The notes: generated by a model from the letters alone, not told the origin. A stretch of 53,572 nt of DNA from a virus (IMGVR_UViG_3300031705_000005:1-53572); one strand, 5' to 3'; counted from the stretch's first letter, positions 4,044-9,666 are shown. Translations and numbers: made by a program.

Positions 4044-4514
4044 GATTCTTAATTGATGATTAGCGTTAAATAAAGGTAGAATATAAATTGTGTTAAAGTA
4101 GATTAAGTTCGAATATATACTGTTTGGTATGTGCATAATAAATCTACCAAGTGTACCAACTGTATTGTAATATGTTGGATAAATAAATTTATAGGATGCT
4201 CAATTTGCGAGGGAAGGCTTACACAACCCCTGCACCAAAGGACAACTGTTAAGACAACCATTTGAGAGTTTAGTGTGGGTAAAGTCACAGGAAGCTAATT
4301 TATTAATACACTTAGGAGTTTACAGCAAGAGATAATAGTAAAGCTGATTAAATTGAGATTAAGGTAAAGGTTAACCTCTCATTCATGCAGTAACCTCGAA
4401 AGACCCGAAAGATTATCTCGTGACCATTTATAGTAGTGATAACCAGAACAAAGCTAAATAGCACAAAAGGTTATAGGAGATGCTAGCTATTATAGATGGT
4501 GCTAATAAAGAATC
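4044..4514 (+). ncRNA. Putative large structured non-coding RNA (~470 nt), family unknown
   Basis: No credible ORF; end-closing helices 4044-50/4508-14 and 4059-65/4500-06, many internal helices and two potential pseudoknots; an internal domain is duplicated at 9563-9662. Confidence 0.7.
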
Positions 4515-4516
4515 TT

Positions 4517-4614
4517 AATTGTTAATAACTTTTGAAAATAAACTGAAAACCATTAGGAATTTCAATTTAAATTGCGTATCTTTATTATATAATAAGAAAG
4601 GGGCAGAGTTGAAT
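4517..4614 (+). promoter_or_regulatory. Early promoter repeat (near-identical to 15013-15110)
   Basis: TGTTAATAA 4520, TTAGG 4553, 19 nt, TATCTTTA 4577, conserved TAATAAGAAAGGG leader. Confidence 0.8.
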
Positions 4615-4634
4615 CTAATTAACAAATATAAATT

Positions 4635-4949
4635 ATGAACAAAATAGAAAACTATTCACTTCTAAATGGAACAAGCTTTCATGGTAGTGTAATTAAAACA
4701 ACACCAAATGCTTTAATCAAATTAGCCGAATCACTTGGTGGGGATTATAATTCTGATAACGGTGGTGATGATAAAACTAATTTCGATTTTGGATTTGAAA
4801 CTGATAATGGAATTTCGTTCTCAGTATATGATTGGAAAGAATACAGGTCATTAGACTTGTCCGAAGTGGTAACGTTCCATATAGGAACTCACTCAAAGAT
4901 GGATGGGATAACGGCTAAAGAGGAACTTACAAATACATTAAATAAATAA
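4635..4949 (+). CDS. hypothetical phage protein
   Basis: 104 aa with FSVYDWKEY and FHIG motifs. Confidence 0.75.
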   Translation: MNKIENYSLLNGTSFHGSVIKTTPNALIKLAESLGGDYNSDNGGDDKTNFDFGFETDNGISFSVYDWKEYRSLDLSEVVTFHIGTHSKMDGITAKEELTNTLNK

Positions 4950-4953
4950 GATT

Positions 4954-5640
4954 ATGAAAATATGGCACATAAGTGATACACATACTTATCACGACTTACT
5001 AACAATTCCAACGGGAATAGATATGGTTATCTTTAGTGGTGACTGTTCTAACCCAAGAGACCCATATACCAATGAACCTGAAGTAAGAGGGTTCATCGAT
5101 TGGTTTGGCTCGTTACCTATTAAACATAAAGTGTTTGTAGCAGGTAACCACGATACCTCAATTGAAAAGGGATTGGTGACTAAAGATGATTTTGATTCTA
5201 ATTGTATTCACTACTTAGAGAATACCCATATTACTATTGAAGGTATTAAAATATTTGGTTCACCATATACTCCATCATTTGGAATGGGGTGGGCATTTAA
5301 CAAAGCAAGAAATAAGTTAGATAGAATTTGGGCTAGTATAATTGATACTGATTCAGATATTATTATAACACATGGACCACCAAAAGGAATATTGGATATG
5401 GGTATTGATAGACTGAACGTAATGGAGTTTTGTGGATGTAAAAGTTTATGGAACGTTGTTAAATCAATCAACCCTCAACTGCAGTTGTTCGGTCACATAC
5501 ATAACTGTAAAGACATTATCAACGCAGGGACTCGAACTGTTGATGGATTGGATACTATCTTTTCAAATGGCTCAGTAATAACCGATGGAAAATTCGGTAA
5601 GTTAAGTAGTAACGGAAATATATTAGAAATAAACAAATAG
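4954..5640 (+). CDS. Calcineurin-like metallophosphoesterase
   Basis: Motifs SDTH, SGD, GNHD, THGPP, FGHIH. Confidence 0.92.
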   Translation: MKIWHISDTHTYHDLLTIPTGIDMVIFSGDCSNPRDPYTNEPEVRGFIDWFGSLPIKHKVFVAGNHDTSIEKGLVTKDDFDSNCIHYLENTHITIEGIKIFGSPYTPSFGMGWAFNKARNKLDRIWASIIDTDSDIIITHGPPKGILDMGIDRLNVMEFCGCKSLWNVVKSINPQLQLFGHIHNCKDIINAGTRTVDGLDTIFSNGSVITDGKFGKLSSNGNILEINK

Positions 5641-5646
5641 AAAGTT

Positions 5647-6078
5647 ATGGCAACATTAGAAGTAAACAATAAGCAATTGAGATTAATTCAATCAGCATTA
5701 GATTTATATTCAAGGATAGGTATCGGACAATTTGAGGTGATTAAAGAACACCCAACATTTGAAAGACATTTAGCAAACCAACTTATAGATAAGGATGGAA
5801 AAACTGATTATGGACAATACCATACAGTTAGAGATTCAGTAGATTTGATGTTAGTTCAACCTAGGAATATGTTAATACAAGAACCTAACCACCCACAGAA
5901 TGGGAGTTGGGGTATTCATAATCCAAAGGTAGACGAAACCTGTAGAGATGCATATGATTTGATTCAAGTAATCAGACATGAATTTTGGAAAGCTCAGAGT
6001 GAACCAACTAATCACACAGTCGATTCATCGGTTCATTTAACAAATGAGGATTCAAATAATATAAAAGTAACGCTATGA
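5647..6078 (+). CDS. hypothetical protein
   Basis: 143-aa ORF. Confidence 0.75.
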   Translation: MATLEVNNKQLRLIQSALDLYSRIGIGQFEVIKEHPTFERHLANQLIDKDGKTDYGQYHTVRDSVDLMLVQPRNMLIQEPNHPQNGSWGIHNPKVDETCRDAYDLIQVIRHEFWKAQSEPTNHTVDSSVHLTNEDSNNIKVTL

Positions 6079-6407
6079 GTAAATTAGAACAGAAAAAGCT
6101 ACACTTAACTTTAGATGAGCTATTTGATACAGTCGCTAGGCCAATAGAAGATGATAATTGGAAGTTGGTAAGAGAGAGGGATGATTTAACTTTATATTCA
6201 GCCGATGTAATGTGGTTAGAATTTAATGAAGATAGGACGTACAAAGCAAAGCAAGAGCAAATTGGTATTGGGTGTAGTTTACTCATGTCACCATTCACCT
6301 TCCAATTCACATGGCAGACTACAATGGTAACTGAAATTGTAGAGGTTACTAAAGAATATACTAAATTCAAAACAAAGAATAGTAATTACATATTATATAA
6401 GATATGA
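6075..6407 (+). CDS. hypothetical protein
   Basis: 110 aa, ATGA overlap. Confidence 0.75.
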   Translation: MSKLEQKKLHLTLDELFDTVARPIEDDNWKLVRERDDLTLYSADVMWLEFNEDRTYKAKQEQIGIGCSLLMSPFTFQFTWQTTMVTEIVEVTKEYTKFKTKNSNYILYKI

Positions 6408-6811
6408 AAACAGAAACAATTACAAATAGATATAACGATGAATTTACATTCACCGAATTAAAGGATGGGAACATCCAATGGGCTGGTAACTTTGAGTACG
6501 CTCGTTGTGGATTTCCAAATGATTACTCAAACGCATATAAAGTATTTAGTGAGAATAAAGATGAAGATTCATTATCATTAGAAGAATTTATATTTGAAGT
6601 ACATCAAAGTATACATGATGAAGATGGTAAGTATATATCACCCGGACCAATCGCTGATGGGTATAGGAATTTAGTTACCTCCAAAATACACGTTATAGAT
6701 ATGGTTGACCCAAGTGGTGGACCATACATGTCAGCGGGAATGAACTTGATGGGTAAAACTATTGTAGAATTTAAATCTAATAAAGACGGATACTTAATTA
6801 TAACTAAATAA
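6404..6811 (+). CDS. hypothetical protein
   Basis: 135 aa with a VDPSGGPY motif. Confidence 0.75.
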   Translation: MKTETITNRYNDEFTFTELKDGNIQWAGNFEYARCGFPNDYSNAYKVFSENKDEDSLSLEEFIFEVHQSIHDEDGKYISPGPIADGYRNLVTSKIHVIDMVDPSGGPYMSAGMNLMGKTIVEFKSNKDGYLIITK

Positions 6812-6817
6812 AAAGAA

Positions 6818-6967
6818 ATGAAAAAGAATATAGATAAAAACTTAACACAGGGTAGAACTCATAAGCAAGTAGAGGATAACGAACTGACGATGGGATTGAT
6901 ATTAAAAGCAGCTGTTGCTTTCATATGTGGTTCAATTATTTACAACGTAGTTACATACGGTATTTAA
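6818..6967 (+). CDS. small membrane protein (49 aa)
   Basis: Manual translation; one C-terminal hydrophobic helix. Confidence 0.55.
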   Translation: MKKNIDKNLTQGRTHKQVEDNELTMGLILKAAVAFICGSIIYNVVTYGI

Positions 6968-8656: not shown

Positions 8657-8669
8657 TAAAAGTTACAAT

Positions 8670-8751
8670 GGAAGAGTGGACAATGGTTGTTAAACTGTCT
8701 TGAAAACAGTCGGGTGTTAAAGCTTTGTAGGTTCGAATCCTATCTCTTCCG
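8670..8751 (+). tRNA. tRNA-Ser(TGA)
   Basis: GGAAGAG/CTCTTCC acceptor, ACTGT-CTTGAAA-ACAGT anticodon arm, long variable arm, GGTTCGAATCC, G73; short D-loop; CCA not encoded. Confidence 0.9.
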
Positions 8752-8881
8752 CAGCGATTGCCTGACTCCTAATATGTACGGCAATAGTCATTTAGATTTT
8801 AGGAAGTCTGAGAATGATACGTTACTAAGGCTCACTTTAGTAGTAGGTACGTTATTGAACATTATGTTAAAACCTACAAAC

Positions 8882-8953
8882 GGCCCGTTCATCTAACGGT
8901 TAGGATATACGGTTTTCATCCGTAAAATGGGAGTTCGATTCTCCCACGGGCTA
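8882..8953 (+). tRNA. tRNA-Glu(TTC)
   Basis: GGCCCGT/ACGGGCT acceptor, TACGG-TTTTCAT-CCGTA, GGGAG-TTCGATT-CTCCC. Confidence 0.93.
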
Positions 8954-8959
8954 CAAAAT

Positions 8960-9160
8960 ATGAAAGATAAGATAATAATTATTCTAACTGCGGGTATTAT
9001 ATTTATACTAGCTATGTTAGTGATTGGGGATTTTATAATTTCCCTAAAAGAAAACAGACCAGCCGATGAATCAATCGTACATTTGGTACAAGTTGCTATT
9101 GCTGGAATTATAGGAATTGTGGGGGGTTACTTCGGTAATAGTAATAATAATAAAATCTAA
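8960..9160 (+). CDS. small two-helix membrane protein
   Basis: Track ORF 8927..9160 starts inside tRNA-Glu; ATG 8960 preferred; two hydrophobic helices. Confidence 0.7.
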   Translation: MKDKIIIILTAGIIFILAMLVIGDFIISLKENRPADESIVHLVQVAIAGIIGIVGGYFGNSNNNKI

Positions 9161-9178
9161 ATAAAAAAAAGGAAAATT

Positions 9179-9412
9179 ATGGATGTAGTAAAATGTTTAT
9201 TAGCAATTAATGATGCAAAGAGTAGTGTTGAGGGAAACGACCCAAGAACATGGATGAAAGCTTGTGCAGAAGAAACTTTAATAAAAGGTAAATCAGGAAA
9301 ACATTTTAAAAAGTGTTTAATAGGTAAGATGGAAACAGCTAAACATCATATAGAAAACCCAGTACAGTATGCTGATGAATTGTATGATAGTATTAAGAAA
9401 TCTTGTAGGTAA
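9179..9412 (+). CDS. hypothetical protein
   Basis: 77 aa with A-rich leader. Confidence 0.7.
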   Translation: MDVVKCLLAINDAKSSVEGNDPRTWMKACAEETLIKGKSGKHFKKCLIGKMETAKHHIENPVQYADELYDSIKKSCR

Positions 9413-9419
9413 CATTAAT

Positions 9420-9492
9420 TGTCCTATGGTGTAACTGGCAACACGTCTGCTTTTGGTGCAGAAGAGTCGAGGTTCGAGCCCTTGTGGGACAA
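9420..9492 (+). tRNA. tRNA-Gln(TTG)
   Basis: TGTCCTA/TGGGACA acceptor, TCTGC-TTTTGGT-GCAGA, CGAGG-TTCGAGC-CCTTG. Confidence 0.93.
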
Positions 9493-9562
9493 CAATAGGA
9501 AGTAAGGTAAGCGCACCTTTTTAATGTCAGAACACATTAAACCTATTTTTTAGTAGTAAATT

Positions 9563-9666
9563 AATAAAGGGGTGAGTGAAACTGATTAAATTGACAACAT
9601 CTGTGGTAAAGGTTAACCCGTCATTCATGCAGTAACCTCGAAAGACCCGAAGCCCCTTTATTTTTT
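9563..9666 (+). ncRNA. Stand-alone copy of the pseudoknotted domain found in the 4044-4514 RNA; closing stem followed by a U-tract
   Basis: Identical blocks of 13, 14 and 31 nt shared with 4344-4409; different but complementary closing stem AATAAAGGGGT/GCCCCTTTATT. Confidence 0.7.

Follow-up and report, generated by a model that had tools for sequence, protein, structure and literature searches.

A candidate family of small pseudoknotted RNAs, free-standing beside tRNA genes and nested in a larger RNA, in uncultured marine tailed phages

Why should a phage carry one short sequence core twice, with paired segments that differ between the copies and nevertheless remain complementary? This question is raised by the viral record IMGVR_UViG_3300031705_000005:1-53572, the whole of which (53,572 nucleotides, nt) is here called the window. 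One copy of the core (copy A, 4329-4419) is nested in a large structured region, the other (copy B, 9563-9662) stands free in a cluster of tRNA genes, and an earlier note had proposed that both represent an autonomous pseudoknotted RNA domain, referred to in the following as module 1. Judged from sequence comparison, module 1 is a previously uncatalogued family of predicted structured RNAs of 85-102 nt in uncultured marine tailed phages. Features of the window lie on the plus strand unless stated otherwise.

The two copies and the fold of the family

The two copies share a 31-mer, TCATTCATGCAGTAACCTCGAAAGACCCGAA, which occurs exactly twice in the window (4379-4409 and 9621-9651); no further match with up to 3 mismatches was found there, and 100 shuffles gave 0 matches at 3 mismatches. 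Equally, the 13-mer CTGATTAAATTGA is present exactly twice (4344-4356 and 9582-9594), and GGTAAAGGTTAACC is common to both copies (repeat family D3). Concerning the paired regions, the closing stem P1 is formed by GAGATAAT/ATTATCTC in copy A (4329-4336 with 4412-4419) and by AATAAAGGGG(T)/(G)CCCCTTTATT in copy B (9563-9573 with 9652-9662), and the inner stem P3 reads TGAGA/TCTCA in the former (4354-4358/4377-4381) and TGAC/GTCA in the latter (9592-9595/9620-9623). P2 is situated at 4344-4346/4388-4390 and 9582-9584/9630-9632, P4 at 4363-4365/4374-4376 (enclosing the loop 4366-4373) and 9605-9607/9616-9618. Within the P4 loop, AGGTTA (4368-4373; 9610-9615) is complementary to the downstream TAACCT (4391-4396; 9633-9638), which passes directly into C-GAAA-G (4397-4402; 9639-9644); copy A further exhibits the segment J (AGUAAAG, 4337-4343) after the 5' strand of P1 and ACCC-GAA (4403-4409) before its 3' strand. 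The shared blocks, the compensatory stems, and the loop complementarity described by the earlier note were all present at 4329-4419 and 9563-9662 as it had claimed.

Since minimum-free-energy folding of the single copies is unremarkable on either strand (z -1.4 to -1.9), the case for the fold rests on comparative evidence. Three pattern scans of IMG/VR yielded 25 loci with 22 distinct copies, every one of which possesses a closing helix of 6-14 base pairs (bp) whose sequence varies from copy to copy. The covariance model R1 was built from the 7 of these 22 sequences that aligned in register, and all matches were realigned to it; on the IMG/VR loci it gave 26 matches, 21 of them distinct. A 20-mer pattern with two free positions added 91 stretches from metagenomes and 7 from genomes, and 83 of these 98 loci passed R1 at E <=0.001. 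The only genome stretch among the 7 to pass was L143, a 577-nt contig of a Flavobacteriales metagenome-assembled genome (from a collection of one genome per species, 185,579 species). Accepted members score 49-116 bits (family cut-off of the subsequent model R2: at least about 49 bits), and the family comprises more than 60 distinct natural sequences. A looser pattern covering the 5' half matched at least 117 stretches, mostly by chance; with R2, the first 100 of 113 new loci contained one new member, L331. Retrieval was by exact patterns, model E-values are rough, and many contigs are short. In the window itself, an unfiltered search with the full model found copies A (99.5 bits) and B (86.6 bits) only, the next match reaching at most 12 bits. 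The suggestion of modelling the copies and searching viral metagenomes thus led, with a covariance model of their relatives, to dozens of covarying homologues.

In the resulting alignment of 57 distinct sequences, the fold pairs 98.4% of 1344 cells, compared to 83.1% in shuffles, and controls in which the 3' partners were slid by 1-3 columns pair 31-49%. Changes on both sides are found in 14 of the 24 pairs: in all 6 pairs of P1, in all 5 of P3, in 2 of 3 in P4 (inner pair U:A in 44, C:G in 5, G:C in 5, and U:G in 3 sequences), and in 1 of 6 in the pseudoknot (A:U in 46, G:C in 11, broken in none). The IMG/VR set alone, with its 21 distinct sequences, gives the same picture of covariation. Because the pair counts used model-fitted alignments, an alignment-free test of P1 was added: each 5' strand forms on average 10.2 bp (6-14) with its own partner versus 4.7 bp with swapped partners. 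Plain MAFFT followed by RNAalifold recovered the pseudoknot helix without any model; P1 and P3 were not aligned by this procedure.

Covariation shows P1 to be a long closing helix of free sequence, followed by a purine-rich internal loop, AGURAAG opposite ACCC-GAA, as well as a variable P3 stacked on the 3-bp hairpin P4, whose 8-nt loop pairs over 6 bp with the strand immediately following P2 on its 3' side, giving the pseudoknot. The family pattern accordingly runs P1, AGURAAG, CUG, P3, P4 with the loop AARGGUUA, CAG, UAACCY, YGAAAG, ACCC, and the invariant segment YGAAAG-ACCC-GAA leads back to P1. The autonomous, pseudoknotted module with swappable stems that had been proposed from two copies is therefore upheld by its homologues, which covary in P1, P3, P4, and the pseudoknot. 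For the GAAA tetraloop, also part of that proposal, the outcome is mixed: the sequence is present and such a loop plausible, but it is closed by a single Y:G pair (U:G in 31, C:G in 26 sequences) and so gains little support. The 22-sequence alignment contains 37 invariant, largely unpaired positions, 18 of which the search pattern itself had fixed. Well-supported new families of structured RNAs rarely show so many positions that are both invariant and unpaired, and those that do have historically been ribozymes, aptamers, or parts of ribonucleoproteins.

Two further structural ideas were dropped. Covariation within the purine-rich loop (AGU..GAA versus GGU..AUA in some nested copies) held in 3 of 6 non-GAA members, too weak to be used, and a loop-loop dimer via GGTTAACC is contradicted by members with GGTTAGCC or GGTTACCC, in which the palindrome is lost and the pseudoknot complementarity kept. 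The internal loop beside P1 (AGURAAG opposite GAA) may resemble the bulged-G or sarcin-ricin motif, which offers a lead.

Concerning known RNAs, a scan with Rfam 15 (4227 models) found only tRNA in the window at gathering score and nothing over either copy at E <=5. Neither copy is called a tRNA or transfer-messenger RNA (tmRNA) by ARAGORN or Rfam, and matches to the Rfam family tmRNA_permuted lie outside module 1 and outside the large RNA treated below. No description of the motif or of the large RNA was found in the full-text literature, which is weak evidence, as a text search is blind to sequence motifs; novelty relative to the 224 motifs of PMC5737381 was judged through the Rfam scan alone. 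Mimicry of ribosomal RNA was considered as well, but local alignment of the copies with E. coli 16S, 23S, and 5S revealed no convincing similarity: the best alignment, copy A with 16S 177-199, has a score of 24, which was reached by 7 of 200 shuffles, and all others were reached by 32-198 of 200.

Among cultured or isolated phages, blastn of 3900-4700 and 9500-9700 against 50,697 GenBank phage records found no module 1; besides a match in phage cr126_1 to a second module described below, it returned just a 35-nt chance match in Erwinia phages. R2 was also run over 151 Flavobacteriales genomes and found the genome of L143 and two weak matches of 28.6 and 26.2 bits. The matches on Flavobacteriales chromosomes (L360 1501-1582; L361 1501-1582, minus strand) were rejected as members, since the pseudoknot is missing from them, as is P3 or P4. 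Common to them and to module 1 are P1-like ends and fragments of the core (GAAGCUG…GGGUUACC in the first, GAAAGACCCG in the second), and they may be due to chance or represent very distant relatives.

Free-standing copies and tRNA arrays

Copy B is situated 69 nt 3' of tRNA-Gln (9420-9493), which is preceded by tRNA-Ser (8670-8752) and tRNA-Glu (8882-8954), all three called by ARAGORN and matched by the Rfam tRNA model. This setting recurs in the family. Same-strand tRNA genes number 37 within 40 nt of a module and 128 within 1 kb, with 0 on the opposite strand. A same-strand tRNA within 40 nt is found in 30 of 75 distinct contexts (on both sides in 7, only downstream in 17, only upstream in 6), which is a lower bound, as ARAGORN misses some tRNA-like neighbours (L013 and L021 versus L023). 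The gaps, typically 5-13 nt from the model edge, are like ordinary spacers between tRNAs. In one locus, for example, the order is tRNA-Arg, module 1, tRNA-Met (L020). The neighbouring tRNAs vary (Arg, Leu, Met, Thr, Gln, Ala, Cys, Asp), so that no particular tRNA is tied to the module. A further 9 of the 75 contexts are nested in the large RNA, according to a crude test.

Copies A and B are only 78% alike in their core. The closest relatives of copy A (93.5% alike) are free-standing copies beside tRNA-Arg, and that of copy B (L168, 97.5% core identity) likewise has a tRNA-Gln 74 nt upstream. Since each has closer relatives elsewhere, the two copies do not stem from a recent internal duplication, and the module has switched between a free-standing and a nested position. 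Five further phage records of 115-297 kb, of which three are at least 96% complete, contain exactly one module 1 each, and 4 of these 5 are without block 5 of the large RNA. The use of the module as a free-standing element in a tRNA cluster, as earlier envisaged for copy B, is in agreement with this: it is strand-locked to tRNA genes and stands alone in phages without that block.

These data might be explained by a stand-alone RNA domain that is released from tRNA-array transcripts and binds a partner in trans, a reading to which we give an even chance of being right. Module 1 would be transcribed on the tRNA strand as part of arrays of tRNA genes, and the enzymes maturing the neighbouring tRNAs, i.e., RNase P at the 5' end of a tRNA that follows, and RNase Z or 3' trimming after one that precedes, would release it as a stable small RNA. 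P1 would serve as the protective end helix of the released RNA, and the invariant, largely unpaired core as a surface or pocket for one conserved partner, which may be a protein or a small molecule, of the host or of the phage. As the domain is self-contained, it could also be displayed as a plug-in arm of the large RNA, a scaffold of roughly 490 nt with interchangeable inserts.

Several points weigh against this reading. No tRNA is called within 40 nt in 36 of the 75 contexts, many of these contigs being short, and a tRNA within 1 kb is found in 47 and in none of the remaining 28. P2 (CUG/CAG) and five of the six pseudoknot pairs are invariant and so unproven, and the pair counts were, as noted, made on alignments fitted to the model. 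The pattern by which most members were retrieved prescribes 18 nt of the 3' core, such that the invariance of this segment is partly by construction; 12 loci from the 5'-half pattern and L331 carry the same 3' core, L331 differing at the G before CAG. Transcription, excision, and stability of the module are finally all things that we infer from sequence.

An element acting at the level of DNA (a miniature transposon, or a site of recombination or protein binding) or a short coding sequence might also be imagined, given the inverted termini around a conserved core, the homing-endonuclease genes near some loci, and the exact exchange of inserts at the stem boundary in relatives. However, the terminal repeats differ between the copies and yet remain complementary, including G:U pairs, which are present in P1, P3, and P4 and would be mismatches on the opposite strand. 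The occurrence of one copy per genome in all five other records, together with 38 different P1 5' strands among 66 elements, is unlike a miniature inverted-repeat transposable element. In addition, the orientation is tied to the tRNA strand, the lengths of 85-102 nt show no 3-nt rhythm, i.e., indels do not come in threes, and nearly all members have plus-strand stops in every frame. We regard an explanation of this kind as barely credible.

The surroundings of copy B could instead point to a cis-acting terminator or a riboswitch-like attenuator of tRNA operons, in which P1 and a U run would stop the polymerase: the P1 of this copy is rich in G+C and is followed by TTTTTT and then by promoter-like repeats, and at least 5 T within the 8 nt after P1 are found in 15 of 74 contexts. 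With the other 59 lacking such a T run, termination is not the function of the family. Furthermore, a terminator scan gave 0 terminator-like sites at copy A or copy B, the next tRNA of the same array often follows within a few nucleotides, and the nested copies lie inside another RNA, all of which renders such a role most improbable.

A ribozyme deserves closer comparison. In folds of the hepatitis delta virus (HDV) type, two pseudoknots are nested, the strand at the 5' terminus has its partner inside the molecule, and the RNA is cleaved at its 5' end. The pistol ribozyme, whose class is often phage-associated, has a short hairpin loop that forms a 6-bp pseudoknot with a downstream strand, and the hammerhead possesses a conserved core heptamer after stem I and a GAA strand at its three-way junction. 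Against this background, module 1 resembles the pistol ribozyme in the 6-bp pseudoknot between a hairpin loop and a downstream strand, but its helices follow a different order: P3, P2, and P1 surround the pseudoknotted hairpin, with the 3' strand of the pseudoknot placed between P2 and P1; the Pistol model of Rfam had no match in the window at E <=5. In contrast to the HDV fold, every member has its 5' end joined to its 3' end by the outermost helix, and the only pseudoknot is that of the hairpin loop; no HDV-family model matched the window at E <=5. The hammerhead was rejected as a candidate, since the letters after CUG vary (AUUAAAU, UGUUUGG, CCUUAAA, and others) and Rfam gave no match in the window at E <=5.

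Apart from these families, module 1 might be a ribozyme of a new class, self-cleaving or active in processing, that helps to cut tRNA-array transcripts, as has been proposed for theta ribozymes, minimal HDV-like, small pseudoknotted RNAs, which are reported in PMC10879173 to adjoin viral tRNA genes and thus provide a precedent for its position beside tRNAs. In its size, its pseudoknot, and its large number of unpaired nucleotides without variation, it has features typical of small ribozymes. However, no ribozyme family of Rfam matches even at E <=5, the 5' end pairs with the 3' end and a hammerhead-type core is missing, as set out above, no nucleotide is conserved in the spacers to the flanking tRNAs that would point to a site of cleavage, and nested copies would cut the large RNA. 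A catalytic function is hence unlikely, in our estimation.

A comparable placement is known from bacteriophage T4, whose stable RNAs species 1 and 2 (rnaC and rnaD; 139 and 119 nt) lie right behind a tRNA, like free-standing module 1; the T4 tRNA cluster also holds a homing-endonuclease gene, according to the record annotation. Homology is not indicated, the best model match in the T4 region reaching 14.4 bits (E 0.14) at a site other than rnaC and rnaD.

The large RNA and its exchangeable inserts

Copy A is part of a multi-helix RNA scaffold of roughly 490 nt (4014-4506), recognized by conserved blocks and with putative 5' and 3' ends. It begins with the hairpin of block 0 (about 4014-4047) and a promoter-like block of AGATAGAATATAAATTGTA type (about 4075-4093). 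Block 2 (4136-4183) contributes the 5' strand of a long-range helix, H1 (4149-4155), and a hairpin (4156-4178), and is followed by the variable site X (4180-4304) and by block 3 (…ACACTTAGGAGTTTACAGCAAGAGATAAT, 4305-4336), with the 3' strand of H1 (4307-4313). Stem A and its variable insert (4329-4419), occupied by copy A, then lead into block 4 (ATTATCTCGTGACCATTTATAGTAG, 4420-4436), stem B with another variable insert (4423-4436/4487-4500), and the last block, block 5 (GCTATTATAGATGGTGCTAAT, 4487-4506).

An anchor pattern of the scaffold matched at least 119 stretches, with 15 places passing a filter for the upstream block, and scaffold blocks recur in at least 16 loci. H1 exists in four versions, AAGUGUA/UACACUU, AACUCUA/UAGAGUU, CAAAGUA/UACUUUG, and CAGUGUA/UACACUG (partly read by eye), and because this long-range helix covaries, the scaffold is probably a genuine multi-helix RNA. 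It is unmatched in Rfam: 4014-4506 gave nothing at E <=5, and 14 scaffold loci gave just tRNA and permuted tmRNA, as did 7 of these 14 at E <=1.

Module 1 occupies stem A in the window and in L009, whereas it is found in stem B in L012, L005, and L161; other scaffold loci among the matches listed possess unrelated inserts there. DNA contigs from four marine runs retain P1 (up to 4336 and again from 4412), with the core in between (4337-4411) replaced by five different inserts of 26-37 nt, two of which also occur in L140 and L055. In each of the four runs, the contigs either skip site X or have it replaced, and one contig joint places the scaffold directly 3' of tRNA-Gln. These joints, with short sides of 23-38 nt, come from related phages and represent alternative forms in relatives rather than rearrangements within a genome. 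The nested use of module 1 that the two copies had suggested is borne out by these relatives, which hold the module in another arm or other inserts exactly at the P1 boundary. As far as sequence comparison can tell, the scaffold is a predicted RNA in which the inserts at three variable sites are exchanged among related phages. BLAST of the other scaffold inserts against non-scaffold loci, a set biased towards loci with module 1, found nothing beyond module 1.

The insert at site X in the window constitutes a second structured unit, module 2 (4182-4304), with the closing stem AATAAATT (4182-4189) paired to AATTTATT (4297-4304). In the crAss-like gut phage cr126_1, two tRNA-Lys genes are separated by an unannotated spacer of 120 nt (L026 1497-1616, corresponding to MT774391 53736-53855), to which the core of module 2 (4188-4260) is 82% identical. 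The closing and inner stems differ in a compensatory manner between the window and cr126_1, as read by eye from these two sequences. A pattern of module 2 found just two near-identical relatives of cr126_1 (L240 and L241), too few for a model. In this crAss-like phage, module 2 probably also lives as an independent gene between tRNAs.

The organization of the scaffold is reminiscent of GOLLD and ROOL, large RNAs of phages and prophages near tRNA islands, which are reported to form homo-oligomeric cages (PMC12286853); the variable region of GOLLD can hold whole tRNAs (PMC12286853 and PMC5737381). Like module 1 and its scaffold, both RNAs are phage-borne and situated in or beside tRNA islands, and the tRNA-holding region of GOLLD parallels the scaffold in placing a self-contained RNA inside a variable site of a larger RNA. 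Despite this general similarity, there are clear differences: The scaffold measures about 490 nt, the unit nested in it is a pseudoknot domain rather than a tRNA and occurs alone as well, and neither GOLLD nor ROOL was matched by Rfam in the window (E <=5) or in the 14 scaffold loci at gathering score (7 of them at E <=1).

This parallel suggests a further role for module 1, namely that of a rigid architectural arm, whose GAAA loop and purine-rich loop would mediate RNA-RNA docking, either in the folding of the scaffold or in multimers like those of GOLLD and ROOL; free-standing copies would either exert their effect on such RNAs in trans or represent evolutionary spares. It is in line with the position of the module in peripheral arms of a multi-helix RNA (stems A and B, in the loci named above), with GAAA-type loops in several of the alternative inserts (read by eye), and with the oligomeric cages described for the two RNAs near tRNA islands. 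However, 4 of the 5 module-bearing phage records are without scaffold block 5, an arm would not need 37 invariant positions, and relatives fill the same arm with unrelated inserts of 26-37 nt, such that the scaffold does not require module 1. We therefore consider an architectural role improbable and continue to prefer the domain acting in trans.

That the large RNA is an intron was rejected, as its flanks differ (small open reading frames in the window, tRNAs in L073, tmRNA in L012) and no group I or group II model matches. In L073, the scaffold is situated between two blocks of a 23-tRNA array. The tmRNA_permuted matches lie just 3' of the large RNA in L012 (468-651, 62.3 bits) and inside the 23-tRNA array in L073 (2296-2547, minus strand, 53.8 bits). 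Two scaffold loci are associated with open reading frames for HNH endonucleases: in L009 (minus strand, reverse complement of about 5400-6160), one of 203 aa, HNH(-AP2-like), occupies site X between blocks 2 and 3, and in L119, one of 132 aa directly precedes stem B, the 5' blocks of the scaffold not being found upstream. It would be unusual for the gene of a structured RNA to enclose a protein gene. In a further contig with the scaffold and a truncated module 1 (L011), ARAGORN calls a tRNA-Pyl at 2808-2879; this tRNA has the anticodon CUA, is possibly an amber suppressor, and hints at stop-codon recoding in some carriers.

The source phage and the possible role of the modules

The window comprises an entire record of 53.5 kb with an estimated completeness of 29%, and its DNA is present only in runs labelled marine metagenome, with no RNA run among the 24 listed. 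The encoded proteins, among them baseplate-wedge proteins, a thymidylate synthase, and an SbcC-like nuclease, point to a large myovirus-like phage as its source. Promoter-like direct repeats (…TTAATTCGTATATTTGTAAAAGAAAT…; repeat families D2 and D4) lie directly 3' of copy B (9666-9755 and 9779-9843), and with a third copy ahead of the tRNA cluster (8416-8505) they bracket this cluster. They contain TATATTTG, which presumably corresponds to the -7 promoter motif of Bacteroidota. Based on this motif, on the family member in the contig of a Flavobacteriales metagenome-assembled genome, and on the link of module 2 to a crAss-like phage, we infer a Bacteroidota host. A scan of the window for sigma-70 promoters remained at or below shuffle expectation, the consensus probably being unsuited to such a host.

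Further features of the tRNA cluster are two open reading frames of 77 aa (8927-9160 and 9179-9412), which fill the 465-nt gap between tRNA-Glu and tRNA-Gln, and, 3' of copy B, three tRNA-like direct repeats of 77 nt (10098-10174, 10302-10378, and 10499-10575), which are 64-87% alike. The first of them is the next tRNA-like gene after copy B (10099-10173; ARAGORN, Rfam, and repeat family D1), called a tRNA with an irregular anticodon loop ('tc'), and the other two, with the T-loop GGCAGTT, are missed by both ARAGORN and Rfam. A variant T-arm like that of these repeats precedes module 1 in L013 and L021, and a normal T-arm in L023.

Taken as a whole, the genomic setting is a known one (cf. GOLLD, ROOL, and the stable RNAs of T4), and the fold, the family, and the cassette-bearing scaffold are represented neither in Rfam 15 nor in the literature searched. 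Module 1 is directly testable, with more than 60 distinct sequences, a covariation-backed pseudoknot, and a defined niche in phage tRNA arrays, and its study has exposed a second object, a multi-helix phage RNA of roughly 490 nt outside Rfam with exchangeable inserts. Both bear on the old question of which role non-tRNA RNAs play in phage tRNA clusters, as raised by T4 species 1 and 2, GOLLD, and ROOL, and they would provide a natural example of shuffled RNA domains and of non-tRNA RNAs set free in phages in a tRNA-punctuated manner.

Tentatively, and with some doubt, we suggest that module 1, module 2, and the other inserts belong to a repertoire of small phage RNA 'effector' domains, aptamer-like or catalytic. 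Each of them would then capture or act on a host factor, e.g., a protein of host defence, a nucleotide used in signalling, or part of the translation apparatus, and would be deployed either singly from tRNA arrays by way of host tRNA processing or several together on the hot-swappable arms of the scaffold. Such a system would constitute an RNA counterpart of the cassettes of accessory protein genes in phages, with module 1 as a possible new class of ribozyme or natural trans-acting aptamer.

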